Origin: an uncultured Bacteroidales bacterium
Lineage (GTDB): Bacteria > Bacteroidota > Bacteroidia > Bacteroidales > P3
Assembly (NCBI GenBank): GCA_946406015.1
Contig: CAMJJD010000002.1
Span: 4,787 to 68,786 of the forward strand
Direction: 5' to 3'
Length of the DNA: 64,000 bases
Of this stretch, positions 14,072 through 35,100 are shown in pieces. The notes below the pieces were generated by a model. The model saw only the letters and a list, made by a program, of their open reading frames with translations, ran no database searches and was not told where the DNA came from. The translations under genes were made by a program, and so were the position numbers. Positions within the stretch are counted from its first letter, which is position 1. Each line of letters opens with the position of its first letter.

Positions 14072-14625
14072 TCGAAGGGGGTGATAAAGTCTTTAAACAA
14101 TGGGGGATGGCGGTCCTTGTCGGAGAGGATGACCTTGTCGGCGGGCACCTGCCAGTCGATGGCCAGCGTGGGGTCGTCCCACGCGATGGCGCCTTCGCTC
14201 TCGGGATGGTAGAGGTTGTCGCACTTGTATTGGAACACAGCCGACTCGCTCAATACGGCAAAGCCGTGGGCCATGCCCTGCGGCAGGTAGAACTGGCGAT
14301 GATTGTCGGCGCTGAGCTCGGTGGCCACATAGCGGCCATAGGTGGGGCTGCCCTTGCGGATGTCGACCGCCACGTCGAGCACACGTCCTTCCACCACACG
14401 CACCAGCTTGGATTGCGCATAGGGAGGACGCTGGAAATGCAAGCCGCGCACCACGCCGTAGCACGAGCGCGACTCGTTGTCCTGCACGAAAGTGACGTCG
14501 GCCACCTCGCCGAAGTCGCGGGCGTTGTAACTCTCGAAGAAATAGCCGCGTGCATCGCCGAACACCCGTGGCTCGATGATGACAACGCCCTCAATATCTG
14601 TCTTGATTACGTTCATCTCAGTCAA
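14068..14625 (-). CDS. rfbC: dTDP-4-dehydrorhamnose 3,5-epimerase
   Basis: 185-aa cupin with [10 protein letters not shown] and RGLHFQ motifs. Confidence 0.92.
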
Positions 14626-15490
14626 TCAGCTTCATCAGGTACTGCCCATATTGGTTCTTGATCATAGGTTGGGCCACCCGGCGGATGTCGTCGTCCGAGA
14701 GCCAGCCGTTCTCGTAGCCGATGCTCTCGAGGCAGGCCACCTTCAGCCCTTGGCGCTTCTCGATGACCTCGATGAAAGTGGAGGCCTCGGCCAGCGAGTC
14801 GTGCGTGCCGGTGTCGAGCCAGGCAAAGCCGCGACCCATCAGCTGGACACTCAACTCGCCATCCTGCAGAAACACCTGGTTGACAGAGGTAATCTCCAGC
14901 TCGCCACGTGCCGACGGCTTGATGCTCTTGGCCACCTGCACCACCTTGTTGGGGTAGAAATAGAGGCCCACGACGGCATAGTTCGACTTGGGTTCCTTCG
15001 GTTTCTCCTCGATGCTGAGCACCCGGCCCTCAGCGTCGAACTCGGCCACACCGTAGCGCTCGGGGTCGGCCACCCAATAGCCGAAGACGGTGGCGCGACG
15101 GTCAACCTCGACATTGTACACCGCCTGGCGCAGCATACGTCCCAGGCCGTTGCCATGGAAGATGTTGTCGCCCAGCACCAAACAGACGTCATCGTCGCCA
15201 ATGAACTCCTCGCCGATGATGAAAGCCTGCGCCAACCCGTCAGGGCTCGGCTGCTCGGCATAAGAGAAGCGCACGCCGAAGTCCGACCCATCGCCCAGCA
15301 GACGACGGAAGCCGGGCAAGTCGTGCGGCGTGGAGATAATCAAAATGTCACGGATGCCAGCCAGCATCAAGACACTGATGGGATAATACACCATCGGTTT
15401 GTCGTAGATGGGCAAAAGCTGTTTGCTCACCCCCTTGGTGATGGGGTAAAGACGGGTGCCGGAACCGCCGGCCAATACAATGCCTTTCAT
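14618..15490 (-). CDS. rfbA: glucose-1-phosphate thymidylyltransferase
   Basis: 290 aa with [18 protein letters not shown] and strong RmlA similarity throughout. Confidence 0.95.
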
Positions 15491-15568
15491 CGATAGTCAA
15501 TAATTATTTCTCCCGTTCTATCTCATACACAAATACTTAACTAAAATACCTCTCACAAACGGGTTTTG

Positions 15569-15576
15569 CAAAGATA
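15569..15576 (-). promoter_or_regulatory. -7 promoter box (TATCTTTG on the minus strand) for the rfbA operon
   Basis: The reverse complement of caaagata matches TAnnTTTG, about 80 nt upstream of the rfbA ATG. Confidence 0.5.
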
Positions 15577-15730
15577 CAATTTTAAAACAAAATAACAAAA
15601 TAAAAAGCGGATTTCCTTCAAAAAGGAGCCTCGCTGCCACAAGACATACGAGTCCGAAATACGAAATTAAATCGTGCACGACCTATCGAAGGCTCACCAC
15701 CCAAGAACCACCATAGCAACACCGGCTCGA

Positions 15731-15803
15731 CTCCGTAGTTTGTCCGTGCGCAGTCGGACCATCCTCGGAGTTGTTACGGAGATACTACGGAGAAACTACG
15801 GAG
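15731..15803. repeat. seven 11-bp-phased CGGAG-type half-sites (2 inverted + 5 direct)
   Basis: ctccgt 15731 and gtccgt 15742 are in inverted orientation. tcggac 15754, tcggag 15765 and acggag 15776, 15787, 15798 are in direct orientation. Confidence 0.8.
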
Positions 15804-15933
15804 ACGCTGCATTCAGAACACTGATTATCATTCGTTTACAGATAAGCAAATCACTATAAATGCTCTTTTTCAGGACTTTAATCCCACAAACGTCCTATTG
15901 CTTCCTTGCGACAAATGACATCGAGAGGGGTGT

Positions 15934-15962
15934 TTTGAGCATGTTCGAAGGACTTAATTTTG
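15934..15962 (+). promoter_or_regulatory. Bacteroides-type promoter inside cassette A (TTTG -33 element plus TAATTTTG -7 box) facing wza
   Basis: TTTG at 15934-15937, a 17-nt spacer, then TAATTTTG at 15955-15962, which ends 10 nt before the right repeat. Confidence 0.5.
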
Positions 15963-16227
15963 GTTAATTACATCGTGCACGATTTATTTACAACCAGTCG
16001 GAAGCCAGACGGTTTTCCCGCCGACTTGCCGACGAAACGGTTTTTGACGACGGAGACGACAGAGGGGACATTTTGCCTTCCGGGCGTCTGCCGGCGCTCT
16101 TTTTTGCAACAGAAAAGCGCTATCGGCATGCGAAAAGAGGTCGCCACAACGCACGGAATATCAATGATATTATGATATACGCGTGCGGAATATTGCTTTT
16201 TTTCATTGCCGATTAGGAAAATAGTCG

Positions 16228-16235
16228 TATCTTTG
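16228..16235 (+). promoter_or_regulatory. -7 promoter box (TATCTTTG) proximal to wza
   Basis: Exact TAnnTTTG, 27 nt upstream of the ATG at 16263. Confidence 0.55.
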
Positions 16236-16262
16236 CAGTTCAAAATACTAAAGTAAACCGAC

Positions 16263-19200
16263 ATGATGAAGAAATCGTTATTACTGGCTCTGATGTTCTT
16301 TGCGCTGCTGCCGCTTTCGCTGATGGCACAGGCGCCCAACATGATGGCCATGGCCCAAGCCGAACTACAGAAACGTGGACTCAACGAAGCCGAGGTGCGT
16401 AGCCGCCTGCTGTCGGAGGGTATCGATGTGGACAACATCCCGCCCACCGAGTATGCCAACTACCAGTCGCGCGTCACCGACATCCTGAATAAGATGCAGG
16501 CCGAGAAAGCAGCCCAGAAGGCCGCCACCGCCGAGGCCAATCCTGCGGCTCCGGCCGTGAACACCTCGTCGCTCGACGCCTCCACGCCGACTTCGAGCGG
16601 GACGAACATCATCGCCACCGCAGCCAGCGAGGCACAGACGCCCAACGAATTTCCGCAAACCACTGCAGGTGAGGCCGCTGCCGAGGAAGCCCTCGAGGAG
16701 ACGCTGAAAGAGAACAATGTCTCCACCACCGCCGGCGACGATATCTACGGCCACGCCCTCTTCACCGGCACCTCGATGGATGTGTTCCGCACCACCGACG
16801 GCGCCCAAGCCCCCGACACCTATGTGCTGGGTGAAGGCGACGAGGTGCACATCTCCATCTTCGGCTCGTCGCAGACCGAGATACATCAACGCATAGCCCC
16901 TGACGGCAGCATCCAGCCTGCCGGCGCAGCCAAGATATTCCTCAAGGGCATGACGCTGGCCCAAGGCCGTCAGGCCATCCAGAACAAGCTGAGCCAGCAC
17001 TACGCTTTCCGTCCCGACCAGATTGCCGTCACCCTCACCACGGCGCGCACCATCAACGTGAGCATCTACGGCGAGGTGGGCGTGCAGGGCGGCTTCACCC
17101 TCTCGGCCCTCAACACGGCCTTCAACGCCCTGGCGGCCGCCGGCGGCCCCACGGCCATCGGTTCCATCCGTAACATCCAGCGTTCGCGCGGCGGCAAGAC
17201 CGACCGACTGGACCTCTACCAGTTTATGACGGGCAACACCAAGAACGTGATGTTCGACCTGCAGAACGGCGACGTGCTCTTCGTCCCGGTGGCCAACAAC
17301 ATCGTGCGCATCGAAGGTGCCGTGCGCCGTCCCATGCGCTACGAAATGATTGAAGGCGAGACCCTCAAGGAGCTCATCGAGTATGCCGGCGGCCTCACCT
17401 ATGACGTCTATCCCGACTTCATCCAGATTGAGCGCCGTCAGAACGACGAGCTGAAATACCTGGAGTTCAACCTCGACGAGGTGATGTCGGGCAAGTCGAA
17501 GGTGCACCTCGAGGGCGGCGACGTGGTCCGCATCAAGACCTCGAACCGTCCGATGGAGAACTACGTCTCCATCCGCGGCGATGTCTACTATGGCGGCAAC
17601 TTCGACCTGGAGAAGAACAGCAGCCTCAAGACCCTCATCGACAAGGCTCAGCTGAAATACACGGCCCGCAAGGACTATGTCATCGTGGAGCGCACTAGCC
17701 CCGATGAGACGGTCGAGTTCCTCACCATCCCCTTCCCCGGCGAGAACGGCAACCCCGACTTCAAGCTGCAGGCCCGCGATGTCATCACGGTGCTCGCACA
17801 GGACAGCTACCTTGAGAAATGGACCGTCTCGGTCGACGGCGAAGTGCGCAACCCCTTCAGCCGCACCTTCGGTCTCAACGACCAGATGACCTTGGGCCAG
17901 GCCCTCGAATATGCCGGTGGACCCAGCCATTCGGCCCGTACCGACTATGTCTATGTGGAGCGCACCCGTCCCGACCTGACGGTCGAGGTGCTCACGCTCC
18001 CCTTCCCCACGCCTGAAAGCGAGTCGTTCAACTTCAAGTTGCAGGCCAGAGACAAGGTCCGCGTGCTCAGCCTCGCGTCGTTCCGCGATGTGGACGAGAT
18101 TTCCGTCCAAGGCCAGGTCCGCGCCCCCTTCACCCGCACCTTCAGCCTGAACGACCGCATGACAGTGAGTCAGGCCATCGAATACGCCCACGGCCTCAAG
18201 CAGAGCGTCTTCCCCGTGGCCTACATCGTCCGCCGCGACCTGACGAACCCCGTCAAACGCCAGTACATCCGTGTGGACCTTGACAAGGACGGCGAGACCT
18301 TGCTGCAGCCGGGCGACCGTCTGAACATCTACGACAACACCACCTACACCAACGTGGGTGAGGTGCGTGTGAGCGGCGCCGTGAAGAACCCCGTGGGAAC
18401 CACCTTCGACCCCTCGCTCACCGTGCACGACCTGCTGCTTATGGCCGGCGGCTTTGAAGTAGGCGCTGCCTATGACCGCGTGGAAGTGTTCCGCGTAAAC
18501 ATCGACAAGAAAGAAGAGGTGAAACTGGAGCAGATTACCCTGCATGTGGACGACAACTACAACCTCATCGAGGACAAGAAGGGTCCCAAGGACTTCCAGC
18601 TGCAGCCCTACGACCACATCGTGGTGCGTATGACCCCCAACTACACCAAAGGCCGCACGGTCGAGGTGAACGGCCGCGTCCGCTATCCTGGCGTCTACGT
18701 GCTCGAAGACAACAAGACCCAGCTGTGGGAAGTCATCAAGATGGCCGGCGGCCTGCTCGACGATGCCGACCCCTATTGCCGTCTGATGCGTACCCAGGGC
18801 CGCAATATCGGCAATATTGGTTTGAATCTCAAGAATGTGAAAAAACATCGTGGGCAGCTCAAACATGACCCCATCCTAATGGACGGCGACGTCATCAATA
18901 TCGTACGCCGTGAGAATACCGTCAAGATTCGCGAAACCGGCACGCTGATGGCTCAGTATGTACCGGAGGAATACTCCTCGACAGAGAAAGTGCTGGTATA
19001 CCAAGGCCGTCACACCGCCGCTTGGTATGTGAAACATTTCGCCGGCGGATTCGACAAGTATGCCAACCGCAAGAGTGTCACAGTAACCTATCCCAACAAC
19101 CAGTCGGATGGTACCAAATACTTCCTCTTCTTCCGCCACACTCCCAGAGTGGAGCCCGGTGGCGTGATTACCATGCAGATGAATACCCAGAAGAAGATTG

Positions 19201-19322
19201 ACGACTCGAAGCCGAAGGAGAAATTCGACTGGGGCAAAGAGGCGAGCAACATGATGAGCGCCCTCACCTCCATCATGTCCATCGTCATCCTCGTCAACAC
19301 CATGAAGAATCTGAACAACTAG
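16263..19322 (+). CDS. wza: large outer-membrane polysaccharide export protein (Wza/BexD family, multiple SLBB domains)
   Basis: 1019 aa with a signal peptide (MMKKSLLLALMFFALLPLSLMAQ), a Poly_export-like region (GDEVHISIFG) and several internally repeated SLBB-like modules (e.g. aa ~480-560 vs ~560-640). Confidence 0.88.
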   Translation: MMKKSLLLALMFFALLPLSLMAQAPNMMAMAQAELQKRGLNEAEVRSRLLSEGIDVDNIPPTEYANYQSRVTDILNKMQAEKAAQKAATAEANPAAPAVNTSSLDASTPTSSGTNIIATAASEAQTPNEFPQTTAGEAAAEEALEETLKENNVSTTAGDDIYGHALFTGTSMDVFRTTDGAQAPDTYVLGEGDEVHISIFGSSQTEIHQRIAPDGSIQPAGAAKIFLKGMTLAQGRQAIQNKLSQHYAFRPDQIAVTLTTARTINVSIYGEVGVQGGFTLSALNTAFNALAAAGGPTAIGSIRNIQRSRGGKTDRLDLYQFMTGNTKNVMFDLQNGDVLFVPVANNIVRIEGAVRRPMRYEMIEGETLKELIEYAGGLTYDVYPDFIQIERRQNDELKYLEFNLDEVMSGKSKVHLEGGDVVRIKTSNRPMENYVSIRGDVYYGGNFDLEKNSSLKTLIDKAQLKYTARKDYVIVERTSPDETVEFLTIPFPGENGNPDFKLQARDVITVLAQDSYLEKWTVSVDGEVRNPFSRTFGLNDQMTLGQALEYAGGPSHSARTDYVYVERTRPDLTVEVLTLPFPTPESESFNFKLQARDKVRVLSLASFRDVDEISVQGQVRAPFTRTFSLNDRMTVSQAIEYAHGLKQSVFPVAYIVRRDLTNPVKRQYIRVDLDKDGETLLQPGDRLNIYDNTTYTNVGEVRVSGAVKNPVGTTFDPSLTVHDLLLMAGGFEVGAAYDRVEVFRVNIDKKEEVKLEQITLHVDDNYNLIEDKKGPKDFQLQPYDHIVVRMTPNYTKGRTVEVNGRVRYPGVYVLEDNKTQLWEVIKMAGGLLDDADPYCRLMRTQGRNIGNIGLNLKNVKKHRGQLKHDPILMDGDVINIVRRENTVKIRETGTLMAQYVPEEYSSTEKVLVYQGRHTAAWYVKHFAGGFDKYANRKSVTVTYPNNQSDGTKYFLFFRHTPRVEPGGVITMQMNTQKKIDDSKPKEKFDWGKEASNMMSALTSIMSIVILVNTMKNLNN

Positions 19323-19326
19323 TCCT

Positions 19327-20466
19327 ATGGAAGAAAATAGAAACAACACCACAGCCACGGCCGAGGAAGAAGGCGGCATCGACATCATGGCTCTGCTGCG
19401 TGGCCTGTGGGACGGTCGTAAAACCATCTTTATCTGCTTAGGTATTTTCATCGTGCTCGGCCTGGTGGCCGCCTTATCGATGAAACGCACCTACTCCGTC
19501 ACCACCGTGATGGTGCCCCAGATGGGCGACGCCAAATCGGGATTGGGCGGCCTGGCCGCACTGGCCGGCTTCGACATGGGAGCTGCATCCAACAACGGAG
19601 AGCTCTCACCTCTTATCTATCCGCAGATAGTGAGCAGCGTCCCCTTCCGCCTCGAGATGATGCACACCCCGCTGCATTACCAGAAGTGCGACACGCTGAT
19701 CAGCATGTTCGACTATGCAAAAGCCAAATACGAAAAGCCCTCTGTATTCTCCTATGTGATGAAATACACTATCGGTCTGCCGGGTGTAATTCTCGGTTCG
19801 CTCAGCAGCAAATCGAAAGAGGTGACCCTTCCCGGAGGGAATGGCACCGACGACGGCACTCCCAAACCTGTAGTGGTCAGCATGGATGAATACAAGATGC
19901 TGCAAGGCATGGGGCAGGTCATCTCCCTTGATGTCGACAAGAAAGAAGGCTATATCACCATGCATGTCAACGGCAGCGAACCTATACAGACAGCCGAATT
20001 GGCGCTGAAGGCCCAGCAGTTGCTACAGGACGAGGTGACCCGTTTCCGCACCGAGAAGTCGCAGAGCGAGTTGGAATATATCCAGGCCCGCTACGACGAG
20101 GCCAAGGCGGAAGCCGAACGCTACCAAATGGCATTGGCCGGTTCCAGAGACCGCATGCAGAATGTGGTCACCACTTCTTCCACCGTCGGAAAGGAGCGCC
20201 TGCAGTCGAAGTTCAACGTGGCCAACACCGTCTACCTCGAGATGGCCAAGCAACTGGAGCAGGCCAAGATGAAGGTGAAGAAAGACACCCCTGCTTTCTC
20301 CATCATTGAGCCTGTCACCCTCCCGATGAAGCCCTCCAACAGCCGAGCCAAGACCCTCATCATCTGGGTTTTCCTCGGAGTCGTCGTGGGCTGCGGCATC
20401 GTATTGGTCAAAGGCTACTGGCCCAAGCTGAAAGAGAAGTTCCAGAAACCCGAGACAGAGGAGTAA
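19327..20466 (+). CDS. wzz: chain-length determinant protein (Wzz / PCP family)
   Basis: 379 aa with an N-terminal TM (IFICLGIFIVLGLVAAL), a coiled-coil periplasmic region and a C-terminal TM (LIIWVFLGVVVGCGIVLV). Confidence 0.85.
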   Translation: MEENRNNTTATAEEEGGIDIMALLRGLWDGRKTIFICLGIFIVLGLVAALSMKRTYSVTTVMVPQMGDAKSGLGGLAALAGFDMGAASNNGELSPLIYPQIVSSVPFRLEMMHTPLHYQKCDTLISMFDYAKAKYEKPSVFSYVMKYTIGLPGVILGSLSSKSKEVTLPGGNGTDDGTPKPVVVSMDEYKMLQGMGQVISLDVDKKEGYITMHVNGSEPIQTAELALKAQQLLQDEVTRFRTEKSQSELEYIQARYDEAKAEAERYQMALAGSRDRMQNVVTTSSTVGKERLQSKFNVANTVYLEMAKQLEQAKMKVKKDTPAFSIIEPVTLPMKPSNSRAKTLIIWVFLGVVVGCGIVLVKGYWPKLKEKFQKPETEE

Positions 20467-20472
20467 TGACTC

Positions 20473-21480
20473 GTGCCCTTTGTCCGCGACATACTACGGC
20501 ACCGCAGCCTCTCCATCGTAGGGATGGAAAAGAATACCGGCAAAACGGTATGTCTTAACTATATATTACGTCGGCTGAACGAGCTGGGGGCGCATGTCGG
20601 CGTCACCTCCATCGGGGTCGACGGCGAACAGGTCGACTCGGTGTTTGCCACGGCGAAGCCCGAGGTGACTCTGTACGAGGGCACCCACTTCATCACTTCT
20701 GAACAGCACTATATGAAACGGCAGACGGTCTCGGTACTCGAGGCCGTCGACAGCCATCGTACCGCCCTGGGACCGCTGGTCACGGCCCGCGTCCTTGTCC
20801 GCGGCAAGGCGCTCCTCTCCGGAGCGGCCACCACCGGAATTCTGCGCCGACATATCGAGCAGCTCAGCTCGAGGGGTGTCGACATCGCCATCGTCGACGG
20901 TGCACTCTCGCGACTCAGCCTTGCCTCGCCCACCGTCACCGACGCCATGATACTGGCCACCGGCGCCGCCGTGTCGGCCAACATAAAACAGCTGGTGAGC
21001 AAGACCAAGTTTCTATACAACCTCATCCTCCTTGACGAGACTACCCCGGCGTTGCGCGACCGGCTGAGCGGCATCCCCTCCGGACTCTGGGCTGTCGACA
21101 GCGACGGCGAACCTCATGACCTCGGCATCGCCTCGGTGTTCCTCATCGACCGCGCAGAGAAAGACATCCTGCGCTTCGGCAAGACCCTCTTCGCCTCGGG
21201 GGCGGTGAGCGACCGCCTGCTGCGAGTGCTGGCCGCCAAAGGCAGGGATATCACACTGATTACGCGCGACTTCACCAAGCTATTCATCACTCCTGAAGCC
21301 TACATGGAGTTCACCCGGCGCGGCGGACGGCTGATGGTGCTGCAACGCTCACGACTGATCGCCATCACCCTCAACCCCACCTCCCCCCAAGGATTCCTGC
21401 TCGACTCCAAGAGCACATGCGACGCATTGAGCGACGCATTGCAGACTCCAGTCTATGACGTGAAGAAGATTACACAATGA
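20473..21480 (+). CDS. uncharacterised SIMIBI-class (BioD/CobQ-like) P-loop protein
   Basis: 335-aa ORF with a GTG start. It has a deviant Walker A IVGMEKNTGKT (G-x5-GKT, as in dethiobiotin synthase/CobQ). Its stop overlaps the next gene's start (ATGA at 21477-21480). Confidence 0.6.
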   Translation: MPFVRDILRHRSLSIVGMEKNTGKTVCLNYILRRLNELGAHVGVTSIGVDGEQVDSVFATAKPEVTLYEGTHFITSEQHYMKRQTVSVLEAVDSHRTALGPLVTARVLVRGKALLSGAATTGILRRHIEQLSSRGVDIAIVDGALSRLSLASPTVTDAMILATGAAVSANIKQLVSKTKFLYNLILLDETTPALRDRLSGIPSGLWAVDSDGEPHDLGIASVFLIDRAEKDILRFGKTLFASGAVSDRLLRVLAAKGRDITLITRDFTKLFITPEAYMEFTRRGGRLMVLQRSRLIAITLNPTSPQGFLLDSKSTCDALSDALQTPVYDVKKITQ

Positions 21481-22868
21481 AGATTAAAGAGCTCATAAAA
21501 CAAGACCCCGGATTCCAGTATGTCATCGACAACATGGAGTTCATGTCGTCGGCCGGCCGGCGCAAGACGCTCAATACCGAGTTCTGCACCGATGCTTCCG
21601 TCTTACAGGCGGAGTGGGACCGGCTCGAGAAGGCCATACAAGCCATCCGGGAATACAAATACAAAAAGCCATACATAGAGTTGCGTCATTGCCTGATGCA
21701 ACTGCATGACCTGCAAGGCACGCTGGCCAACCTGGCCAACCACGCCACGCTGAACGAAGTAGACCTGTTCGAGCTCAAGAGCCTCTCCCTACTGGCACAA
21801 ACGGCTACCGGAGCCATCGCCGGCCTGGAATTGAGCCGGATGCTCCCCCTGCCCAATACCAGCGAGGTGTTTTCCTTGCTCGACCCCGACCATACCGGCA
21901 TAGCGAACTTCTACATCTACGACAGCTACGACGACCGTCTGACGCCTCTGCGGCGTGAGCTGAGCGCACTCCAGACCTCCGAGGGCGACCCCATCCGCAT
22001 CAGCGAACTGCTCGCCCAGCAGAACGAGATTCAGAACGAAGTATGCTCCCGCCTCTCCGACCAACTCATCCCATGGACCGACACCTTGGTAACAGCCATG
22101 GAACAACTGGCTTACACCGACCTGCTGCTGGCCAAGGCCGAGTTGGCTATCGCATGGGAACTGACGCGGCCTGAAATTGGCGACCACATTGAATACACGT
22201 CGCTGGTCAATCCCCGCCTGAAGGAACGTAACGAGAAGGCGCACCTGCGCTACCAACCGGTCGACATTGCCGTACGCTCCGGCGTATGCCTGATTACCGG
22301 TGCCAATATGGCTGGCAAGACAGTGTTGCTCAAGAGTATCGGGACCGCACAAACGATGGCTCAATGCGGCATGTATGTGCCTGCATCCAAAGCTGTTGTC
22401 AAACTGGTCGACGGCATTGTCACCTCCATCGGCGACGAGCAGGACGAAATGAACGGACTCTCCTCCTATGCCGCCGAAATCATCAAGATAAGCAATATCC
22501 TCGACACTTGCCGCAGCCACGACATGCTCGTGCTCATCGACGAGCCAGCCCGCACCACCAACCCCATCGAAGGCAAGGCCTTGGTGCAAGCCATCGTCAC
22601 GATACTCAACACGATGAACTCCATCACCCTCGTCACCACCCACTACAGCGGGCTGGGGAGCGTGGCCACCCGTCGCCTTCGCGTGAAAGGATTCGTCGAG
22701 GGCATGTCCGACGTACCCCTCACCCCACAGAATATCAACCGTTTCATCGACTACTCGCTCACCGAAGACACCAGCGACGACGTGCCCCACGAGGCCTTGC
22801 GCATCGCTTCCATCCTCGGCTGCGACCAGGAGATGATTTCCCTCGCAAAAGATAATATAAACCATTAA
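21477..22868 (+). CDS. MutS-domain-V family ATPase (MutS2-like core, no mismatch-binding or Smr domain)
   Basis: 463 aa with Walker A ITGANMAGKTVLLKSIG, Walker B MLVLIDEPARTTNPIEG and the TTHY motif. The N-terminal half is helical (MutS domain III/IV-like). Confidence 0.8.
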   Translation: MKIKELIKQDPGFQYVIDNMEFMSSAGRRKTLNTEFCTDASVLQAEWDRLEKAIQAIREYKYKKPYIELRHCLMQLHDLQGTLANLANHATLNEVDLFELKSLSLLAQTATGAIAGLELSRMLPLPNTSEVFSLLDPDHTGIANFYIYDSYDDRLTPLRRELSALQTSEGDPIRISELLAQQNEIQNEVCSRLSDQLIPWTDTLVTAMEQLAYTDLLLAKAELAIAWELTRPEIGDHIEYTSLVNPRLKERNEKAHLRYQPVDIAVRSGVCLITGANMAGKTVLLKSIGTAQTMAQCGMYVPASKAVVKLVDGIVTSIGDEQDEMNGLSSYAAEIIKISNILDTCRSHDMLVLIDEPARTTNPIEGKALVQAIVTILNTMNSITLVTTHYSGLGSVATRRLRVKGFVEGMSDVPLTPQNINRFIDYSLTEDTSDDVPHEALRIASILGCDQEMISLAKDNINH

Positions 22869-33568: not shown

Positions 33569-33575
33569 TTCTTGT

Positions 33576-33912
33576 TAAATACATCGCGCACGACCAATTC
33601 CTCACCAGGGAAAATTTACCCCCACAACACCACCGCGTCCCCTCCGACCGAACTCCGACTACAGTCGGAGTAGTATCGGAGTAACCTCGGAGTAGCATCG
33701 GAGATGTATCGGAGATGATGCTATCTACCAGCGACTTACATTCTATTTGTATACACACACATGTGATAACCAAGTAGATACATTATCCACAAGACGCCTG
33801 GGGACCATCTTCAGCCACCTGGAGCGTCAGCGACCATCCATCGGGCACGACAGCAACGGAAATAGATTTTGCCCGTTCAAAATCACTAATTAAATCGTGT
33901 ACGATTTATTTC
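33576..33912. promoter_or_regulatory. cassette B: paralogue of cassette A upstream of upxY, with more degenerate bounding repeats
   Basis: Left site taaatacatcgcgcacga (33576-33593). The reverse complement of the right site (33895-33912) is gaaataaatcgtacacga, giving 14/18 matches. The internal layout matches cassette A. A near-consensus -7 box tagattttg lies at 33863-33871. Confidence 0.45.
33642..33714. repeat. seven 11-bp-phased TCGGAG half-sites (2 inverted + 5 direct)
   Basis: ctccga at 33642 and 33653. tcggag at 33665, 33676, 33687, 33698 and 33709. The central perfect palindrome is ctccgac-taca-gtcggag (33653-33670). Confidence 0.85.
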
Positions 33913-34017
33913 CACAACCCCTTCCGACTGTCGTCACAGAAGGGGTGGTTTTCTCCCCGTTGTGGATTATTTCTCGGCAAAACGCGTTTTTTATTTGGTG
34001 GTATAAAATGTTTTTTG

Positions 34018-34025
34018 TATATTTG
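34018..34025 (+). promoter_or_regulatory. -7 promoter box (TATATTTG) for the upxY operon; implies a ~155-nt 5' leader
   Basis: Exact TAnnTTTG. The upxY ATG is at 34189. Confidence 0.55.
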
Positions 34026-34740: not shown

Positions 34741-35100
34741 ATGAAAAGGGTTTTTGAAAATCTATTTGTATGGCAAGAAGCGAGAACTTTGGTGGGTGAA
34801 GTATATTCCATGCTGGATGGTTCGAGAGATTACGGGTTTAAAGACCAAATACAACGCGCTAGCGTGAGCATCATGAATAATATTGCCGAAGGAGCTGACT
34901 GTGGTTCTGATGCCAAATTCGTCAACTACCTTAACACCGCACGAGGTAGTTGCTCCGAAGTAAAAAGCACGCTTTATTTGTGTGAGGATTTAGGCTTATG
35001 TGGCAGTGAGAAGCGCACAGAATTGCAAGGGCGAGTAAACCAAATATCTTATGGGCTCGCTAAATTAATAGAGTCAATAAAACCCACTCCAGAGCGATAA
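34741..35100 (+). CDS. four-helix-bundle protein (23S rRNA intervening-sequence protein / Avd-like family)
   Basis: 119 aa. LFVWQEARTLVGEVY...QIQRASVSIMNNIAEG...ARGSCSEV is characteristic of this family. Confidence 0.85.
   Translation: MKRVFENLFVWQEARTLVGEVYSMLDGSRDYGFKDQIQRASVSIMNNIAEGADCGSDAKFVNYLNTARGSCSEVKSTLYLCEDLGLCGSEKRTELQGRVNQISYGLAKLIESIKPTPER

Follow-up and report, generated by a model that had tools for sequence, protein, structure and literature searches.

A Conserved Noncoding Cassette with Paired Dyad Sites Between Two Polysaccharide Operons of a Bacteroidales Bacterium, Possibly a Substrate of Site-Specific Recombination

Results

We analyzed a window of 64,000 nucleotides (64 kb) from a contig of an uncultured rumen Bacteroidales bacterium and found that the intergenic region between two polysaccharide operons, headed by rmlA on the left and wza on the right, contains a noncoding unit of ~330 bp with a palindromic site at each end. 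We call this unit cassette A. Its best explanation, to which we assign a probability of roughly 45%, is that of a site-specific recombination cassette belonging to an undescribed repeat family, with an orientation that in this species is either fixed or strongly biased. A sequence-only reading of the same DNA had taken the segment for an invertible promoter, and that proposal survived in part. The segment is real, conserved, and multicopy, and it lies reversed before wza in two sister species; the promoter assigned to it is invariant at only 10% of its positions across species and has a 17-nt gap between its boxes. The conserved content of the cassette is a phased array of CTCCG and CGGAG motifs together with two IHF-like boxes, rather than a promoter.

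Dyad Sites and Their Conservation

The arms of cassette A read GAAATTAAATCGTGCACGA at 15663-15681 and, as the reverse complement, GTAAATAAATCGTGCACGA at 15973-15991. Compared in the inverted register, they agree at 17 of 19 positions, share a 14-bp perfect core and have 291 bp between them, exactly as the sequence-only reading had placed them. Its caveat that the core is palindromic also holds, and both sites are dyads. The left site (15663..15686) consists of the outer half GAAATTAAATCGTG and the inner half CACGACCTAT, with the core TCGTGCACGA at 15672-15681; the inner half is CACGACC in most members of the family, which makes the left site asymmetric. The right site (15964..15991; core at 15973-15982) is a near-perfect 26-bp dyad formed by TTAATTACATCGTG and CACGATTTATTTAC (palindrome I6 of the window), with the dyad halves AATTACATCGTG and CACGATTTATTT. 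A perfect 12-bp palindrome, ATCGTGCACGAT, lies within the sites. The two sites also match in the direct register, at 19 of 22 positions (repeat family D5). Given the dyad symmetry of the individual sites, the pair can be read equally well as a direct or an inverted repeat, and "two copies of a palindromic site" is a better description than "inverted pair."

The 10-mer TCGTGCACGA occurs at only these two places in the 64 kb. Allowing for up to two mismatches, AAATCGTGCACGA was found 10 times in the window against 1.94 matches expected, and the additional matches include both ends of a second cassette, cassette B, at ~33575-33913. No lone sites were found elsewhere in the window; the sites were seen only as cassette pairs. 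Shuffle counts, the paralogue, and the conservation across species together rule out a chance repeat. The family consensus of the ~26-bp dyad site is AATTAAATCGTG followed by CACGATTTAATT, and the central GC is kept in 19 of the 22 tabulated sites. In being imperfect 26-bp dyads, the sites resemble known crossover sites, which is one of the points in favor of recombination.

Nine further assemblies that encode an identical RmlA have a whole intergenic region 95 to 98% identical to that of the window, with both sites invariant. For the comparison across species, we aligned the window with the orthologous regions between rmlA and wza of three sister species, the Wza proteins of which are 90, 88, and 83% identical (alignment A4). 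Across the four species, 86% of the columns were invariant in the left site and 81% in the right site, 58% in the array and 58 to 71% in the two proximal promoters; the figure was 16 to 27% for other noncoding stretches and 10% (3 of 29 columns) for the promoter proposed earlier. The dyad sites are the most conserved noncoding elements of the intergenic region. Purifying selection thus acts on the sites and the array but not on the proposed promoter. That the most conserved elements are sites found only in pairs and enclosing one internal plan is a further argument for the recombination cassette.

The orientation of the cassette differs between species. Upstream of wza, it is reversed in the loci L133 and L154 (Wza 83% identical) and L168 (85%), where it keeps the same distance to the same conserved wza promoter and has the array next to wza; the far neighbor in these loci is glmS instead of rmlA. 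The cassette is forward in all five species with the rmlA neighbor. This comparison places the cassette at a synteny breakpoint and shows that it has turned at least once. An opposite orientation in sister species is what a recombining element would leave behind, and the reversal at a constant distance from the wza promoter, set against the forward orientation in the five species, supports the recombination reading.

The Cassette Family

Cassette B (33575..33913, forward strand) is a paralogue of cassette A located 18 kb away, and the two have a mean column identity of 72% (alignment A1). Its left site consists of TTAAATACATCGCG and CACGACCAAT, its array spans 33643-33715, and its right site consists of CTAATTAAATCGTG and TACGATTTATTT. 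The plan is that of cassette A: a left site, a spacer of ~50 bp, two CTCCG and five CGGA(G/C) motifs at an exact 11-bp phase, a variable stretch, and a right site. Upstream of cassette B is the terminator of an M49 peptidase gene, and downstream of it is a KOW/UpxY-like gene heading a glycan locus of ~30 kb with an ABC-type exporter. The head of a polysaccharide locus is the classic place of Bacteroidales invertons (PMC12632263, PMC11892184), and the position of cassette B is thus another point in support of recombination. The UpxY-like protein itself is not on record, and its 96% relative P0121 took its place in the look-up. The core of the right site varies within the species: the window has TACGA, whereas 12 other contigs have TGCGA. 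This right core also differs from the left core of cassette B. The polymorphism of the right core suggests that cassette B may be decaying, already degenerate, or locked.

A scan of metagenome contigs for the two-arm pattern identified six loci: two are cassette A of the same species, one is the wza cassette of the sister species at L133, and three are in other contexts (L134, L136, and L137). The same pattern had no match in representative genomes, from which a scan for the array (see below) recovered one true cassette, L102, in a metagenome-assembled genome (MAG) from roe-deer reticulum. The relatives are Bacteroidales MAGs from ruminants. Eleven cassettes in at least seven genomic contexts follow one order: left site, array, two boxes, variable stretch, and right site. 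The centers of the two sites are 288, 299 to 303, or 311 to 312 bp apart, and the distance from the left site to the array falls into two classes, 61 to 62 and 73 to 74 bp. The steps of ~11 to 12 bp between the distance classes could reflect the gain or loss of whole 11-bp units or a constraint on helical phase.

The genomic contexts are diverse. The cassette at L137 follows a TonB-type receptor gene, and after it come a promoter and an operon whose products include a type IX secretion cargo protein and an ECF sigma factor. At L102, the flanking genes are a UPF0029 gene, with its 3' end towards the cassette, and a gene for a TPR protein; at L134, they are recJ, again with its 3' end facing the cassette, and a gene for an ABC-F ATPase. 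L136 adjoins an aquaporin gene. This mix of neighbors, wider than surface-structure genes, fits a dispersed element as well as the regulon of a global invertase. We did not find the repeat motif in the literature searched, in which the core sequence appeared only in unrelated papers, none of them on Bacteroidales or DNA inversion, and a literature supplement on invertons contained no such motif.

Array and Boxes

The phased array of cassette A (15728..15806, forward strand) comprises repeat families D2, I1, and I4 of the window. It has an 11-bp phase and consists of CTCCG and GTCCG on one strand, a center at ~15742-15759 (GTCCGTGCGCAGTCGGAC), and then CGGAC and four CGGAG motifs. The phased pattern has 7 matches in the window against 0.01 expected, all of them inside cassettes A and B, and the array was found in every member of the family, 61 to 74 bp from the center of the left site. 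Box 1 (15821..15839, forward strand) reads CTGATTATCATTCGTTTAC, and box 2 (15863..15881, forward strand), a second copy ~42 bp after the first, reads CTCTTTTTCAGGACTTTAA. Both resemble the Escherichia coli IHF consensus, WATCAANNNNTTR. Islands conserved in alignment A4 are GATTTTCAG-N4-GTTAC in box 1 and TTGATTTTCAGG.C.TTA in box 2, and counterparts of box 1 occur, for example, as AATCAAGTGGTTA in L102 and L136. A search of 15400-16400 against Rfam gave no meaningful RNA family. Folded as single-stranded DNA, the arrays of cassettes A and B, which are asymmetric, have z-scores of -2.7 and -3.1.

The array is a frequent stopping point of Logan and MEGAHIT contigs, at the equivalents of 33643-33687 for cassette B and ~500 nt upstream of wza for A-type loci, and independent contigs begin within it (L140, L141, L154, L156, and L162-L166); breakage of assemblies here appears to be systematic. 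With the single exception of a contig starting in the left core of cassette B, no contig stops at a site boundary. As the breaks fall inside the array and not at the dyad sites, they reflect its repetitive and hairpin-prone sequence and provide no evidence of inversion.

The array also occurs outside cassettes. A scan of the representative genomes for CGGAG-N6 repeated four times found, in addition to the cassette at L102, ~30 free-standing arrays in Bacteroidales, along with many chance matches in high-GC actinomycete genomes. Lone arrays are common in MAGs of rumen Bacteroidales, with several per genome and at least five in MAG RUG649. They are long palindromes that fold strongly as single strands, the DNA fold z-score being -10.3 for L079 (5840-5965). 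Further examples are L048, L066, L089, and L114 (MAG RUG649) and ~25 other Bacteroidales loci, mostly intergenic and with genome-specific spacers; similar arrays are present in some Verrucomicrobiota loci (L058 and L105). Of 36 such arrays, 13 have a TAnnTTTG box within the following 200 nt, in comparison with 7.5% at random positions. The free-standing arrays may constitute a REP-like repeat class of Bacteroidales.

A Recombination Model and the Evidence Against It

Cassette A is a member of an undescribed family of ~330-bp noncoding cassettes of rumen Bacteroidales. In the model that we favor, a site-specific recombinase whose gene lies elsewhere in the genome would act on it. Crossover would occur at the two ~26-bp dyad sites (AATTAAATCGTGCACGATTTAATT), with a dimer of the recombinase on each. 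The array, 61 to 74 bp from the left site, and the two IHF-like boxes would serve as accessory sites at which bound proteins assemble the synaptic complex, analogous to Fis and the enhancer in Hin/Gin and to the arm-type and IHF sites in lambda Int and fimS. In the course of evolution, recombination at the sites would have produced the opposite orientations before wza in different species, and in the present species the drawn orientation is either fixed or very strongly favored. Any effect on transcription would probably be at most modulatory: a weak promoter at the right end, specific to this species, may contribute read-through into wza, and both wza and rmlA would run from fixed promoters of their own. 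The internal plan of dyad sites, phased array, and boxes like those of bending proteins suggests a multiprotein recombination or looping complex, not a simple promoter flip.

Several observations weigh against the model, among them the constancy of orientation within species. Cassette A has the same orientation in the window and in 11 other assemblies of the species (L001-L009, L135, and L138), no flip of cassette B was seen in 12 contigs, and several contigs of the L139 type showed no variation in orientation. The 31-mer spanning the flipped junction, ACGAAATTAAATCGTGCACGATGTAATTAAC, had no matches in metagenome contigs. These data consist of consensus assemblies, in which a minority orientation would escape notice. 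The reversal between species comes with a change of neighbor, and a larger rearrangement rather than a simple flip may be its cause. All good half-sites follow a single consensus, which makes a simple flip indistinguishable from an exchange between dispersed cassettes and leaves a test based on half-sites without power.

The sites and their surroundings add to the difficulties. The core is palindromic, its central GC included, and gives little intrinsic polarity, which is unusual for dedicated invertases; in several cassettes one or two bases distinguish the left core from the right, without covariation. Neither a Resolvase nor a Phage_integrase domain was found in the major open reading frames of the window scanned with Pfam, in keeping with the earlier caveat that no recombinase gene lies there, and no recombinase was present among the scanned flanking reading frames of L102, L133, L134, L136, and L137. 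Other members of the family adjoin housekeeping genes and 3' ends (ABC-F ATPase, recJ, aquaporin, and UPF0029). Finally, the array stands alone as long hairpin-forming palindromes in many intergenic regions of Bacteroidales, and a role as a recombination accessory is not required to explain it.

Surface polysaccharide phase variation is well described in human-gut Bacteroides, and our search found no literature on invertons in rumen Bacteroidales. The analysis defines a conserved multicopy cassette family with a repeat motif absent from the literature searched. If the cassette inverts, it adds to the catalogue of inverton families and shows that something other than a promoter can be switched. 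Otherwise it is a conserved module with a regulatory or structural role, placed where loci for polysaccharide export and synthesis begin. In both cases, the sites and the array can serve as motifs for scanning rumen genomes and read sets.

Comparison with Known Inversion Systems

The invertible polysaccharide promoters of Bacteroides fragilis are described, in a passage of PMC12632263 citing Krinos 2001 and Coyne 2003, as being controlled by the serine recombinase Mpi. The cassettes resemble that system in being short intergenic segments with conserved repeats and several copies per genome, in the placement of cassette B before an upxY-type gene heading a polysaccharide locus, in the recombinase not being encoded beside the segment, and in site cores rich in CGT/ACG. 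They differ from it in that the promoter is not conserved content, the downstream genes keep fixed promoters, a conserved 11-bp array and two boxes lie inside, and no orientation polymorphism was seen. Mpi-controlled segments measure ~170 to 190 bp between the arms, whereas the cassettes here are longer, with 291 to 301 bp. The consensus of the Mpi repeat, ARACGTWCGT, has no match in cassettes A and B on either strand.

The fimS element of E. coli is similar in its length of ~300 bp and in having interior accessory sites for DNA-bending proteins, and the IHF-like boxes and the array are in comparable positions. It is inverted by the tyrosine recombinases FimB and FimE and contains IHF and Lrp sites, such sites being needed to synapse short repeats. 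However, fimS holds the only promoter of fimA, has the recombinase genes adjacent to it, and is bounded by nonpalindromic repeats of 9 bp, whereas the cassette has no adjacent recombinase, palindromic cores, and fixed promoters downstream. The Hin, Gin, and Cin systems, which combine serine invertases with a Fis-bound enhancer, share with the cassettes the imperfect dyads of 26 bp and an accessory element inside the segment and near one site. Their polarity is set by an asymmetric central dinucleotide, and their invertase gene is within or beside the segment; here, 19 of 22 sites have the palindromic GC at the center. Fis is not known from Bacteroidota.

Alternative Explanations

An alternative that we consider unlikely is a regulatory module that does not recombine. 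The palindromic sites would be operators of a dimeric protein, the array would bind a second factor, and the resulting loop of ~300 bp would repress, activate, or insulate the fixed promoters. The perfect 12-bp palindrome and the dyad symmetry over 26 bp speak for such operators, as do the equally good match of the pair as a direct repeat (D5), the spacing of the sites in ~11-bp steps (288, 300, and 311), which is expected if helical phase matters, and the constant orientation in every assembly of a species. The cassettes also lie always upstream of, and never over, canonical promoters, and the excess of TAnnTTTG boxes after lone arrays (13 of 36 against 7.5%) is in line with a regulatory role. 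Paired operators should be located at the promoter and also occur singly across a regulon, and neither was found in the 64 kb: the sites are never single, never overlap a promoter, and lie 40 to 240 bp from the -7 boxes, and the expected regulon of single operators is not seen. Moreover, the unit has a fixed internal polarity, yet it occurs in both orientations relative to its neighbors, including at the orthologous position before wza, and several cassettes abut the 5' end of only one gene, the other side being a 3' end.

No likelier, in our judgment, is a dispersed palindromic mosaic element, similar to the BIME and RIP elements of E. coli or derived from an old, domesticated miniature inverted-repeat transposable element (MITE). 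Such an element would have a structural role, in nucleoid-protein binding, transcript-end formation, or insulation, and no programmed inversion. BIME and RIP elements, which are of the REP type, are noncoding mosaics of palindromic units and an IHF-type site that are dispersed through intergenic regions, occur in either orientation, and often lie at the 3' ends of genes. The cassettes, too, are multicopy, noncoding, and found in either orientation in unrelated intergenic contexts, including convergent or 3'-end positions by recJ, UPF0029, M49 peptidase, and TonB-type receptor genes, and, as in RIP elements, palindromic units flank their IHF-like boxes. The kinship of the array to the free-standing hairpin palindromes repeated within genomes (at least five in RUG649; z = -10.3 at L079) and the frequent breaks of assemblies inside the array agree with this explanation. 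The E. coli elements, however, are shorter and far more numerous, and their hairpins are formed by the palindromic units, whereas the cassettes have two separate dyad sites ~300 bp apart. The copies within a genome are ~72% alike, but their terminal sites are 81 to 86% invariant across species, which indicates selection on the ends and not decay. A reversal at an orthologous position is not a property of BIMEs, and the one before wza would require excision and reinsertion at the same spot.

A MITE proper was considered and rejected. The cassettes have terminal repeats, but the flanks of cassettes A and B, as read, have no target-site duplications, the two copies are only ~72% alike, and the ends are conserved while the interior has diverged; the missing duplications and the low likeness argue against a recently mobile MITE. 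Collections of plasmid, phage, and viral sequences contained nothing similar to the cassette, which, like the missing duplications, also counts against the mosaic element.

We are similarly doubtful of an invertible upstream element in which the switched content is the array itself. Here, the conserved cargo would be the 11-bp-phased CTCCG/CGGAG array, bound by protein, and the IHF-like boxes, and the segment would flip towards either of two fixed divergent promoters. The lone arrays would then mark the binding sites of an undescribed nucleoid-type protein, acting as a promoter cofactor and a recombination accessory and representing a Bacteroidota counterpart of Fis.

Least probable of all, in our judgment, is the classic invertible promoter of the sequence-only reading, ON for wza-wzz as drawn and driving rmlA-rmlC-rmlD-dehydrogenase-capD when flipped, so that the population phase-varies; the evidence on the promoters is given below.

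Promoters Inside and Outside the Cassettes

The boxes named in that proposal are present. The internal candidate promoter (15934..15962, forward strand) consists of TTTG at 15934-15937, a gap of 17 nt, and an exact TAATTTTG at 15955-15962, which ends 10 nt before the right arm; it points at wza. Most strains of the species retain the -7 box, as TAATTTTG or TATTTTTG, and the size and location of the segment resemble those of Bacteroidales invertons (PMC12632263, PMC8748976). Beyond the species, the promoter is not conserved: in addition to its low invariance in the sister-species orthologues, it is absent from all paralogues, and when ten cassettes were scanned for TAnnTTTG preceded by TTTG, only cassette A of the window had a canonical promoter inside the segment. 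The gap between its -33 and -7 boxes, 17 nt, is atypical, every canonical fixed promoter of these loci having 19 to 20 nt. No flipped copy was present in the 11 other assemblies, nor any match to the flipped junction.

The sequence-only reading had also noted that both operons have proximal boxes of their own, and these proved to be canonical, conserved, fixed promoters. The -7 box of rmlA (15569..15576, minus strand; repeat I7) reads TATCTTTG on the minus strand, lies outside the cassette, and is conserved in four species with a -33 TTTG at a gap of 19 to 20 nt. The -7 box of wza (16228..16235, forward strand) likewise reads TATCTTTG and lies between the right site, 237 bp away, and the ATG, 28 bp away; AGTCGTATCTTTGCA at this promoter is invariant in four species and recognizable in L133 and L168. 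The fixed promoter of upxY, TTTG-N20-TATATTTG with the -7 box at 34018-34025, lies outside cassette B, and canonical promoters are found outside the cassettes in relatives, too. The proximal promoters of rmlA and wza (15567-15577 and 16227-16237) share an 11-mer in mirror orientation (TGCAAAGATAC and GTATCTTTGCA), conserved in four species.

Since wza, rmlA, and upxY keep canonical conserved promoters outside, the cassette cannot be their ON/OFF switch. Relatives of Wza at 75 to 76% identity have no cassette at all, wza directly following a codirectional nucleotidyltransferase gene. Taken with the fixed promoters, these cassette-free relatives show that the operons neither have the cassette as their promoter nor depend on it. 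The toggle between export and precursor operons that the sequence-only reading had envisaged would be pure conjecture.

Flanking Genes and the Glycan Locus

Pfam searches confirmed the gene calls of the sequence-only reading on both sides of cassette A. To the left, rmlA (14618..15490, minus strand) encodes a glucose-1-phosphate thymidylyltransferase (NTP_transferase, E = 1e-76) and heads a leftward operon of rmlA, rmlC, rmlD, a gene of the UDP-glucose/GDP-mannose dehydrogenase family, and capD. To the right, a Wza-like exporter of 1019 aa (16263..19322, forward strand) has a Poly_export domain and several SLBB domains, and it is followed by Wzz at 19327-20466. Codirectional with wza-wzz and after them, the interval 20473-22868 contains a gene without a Pfam family (~318 to 335 aa) and a gene for a MutS domain V protein (463 aa). 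This pair is present in the examined species that keep the rmlA neighbor and is an unusual partner for a polysaccharide exporter.

The locus downstream of cassette B (34153-63699) spans ~30 kb and encodes an ABC-2 permease and its ATPase, FdtA-type isomerases, an aminotransferase, at least 11 transferases of the GT2 family, an MBOAT protein, and a TupA-like ATP-grasp protein. Its predicted gene content indicates an ABC-transporter-dependent polysaccharide and not one of the Wzx/Wzy type, although wza-wzz lies 18 kb upstream. The head of the locus varies, as is evident from differences in gene content between strains. A gene for a 23S rRNA intervening-sequence protein is located between upxY and the initiating sugar transferase (34741-35100) and is missing from the equivalent interval in other strains (5799-6079 of L011/L012), and in L010 the initiating transferase gene is closely followed by a Y1 transposase gene.

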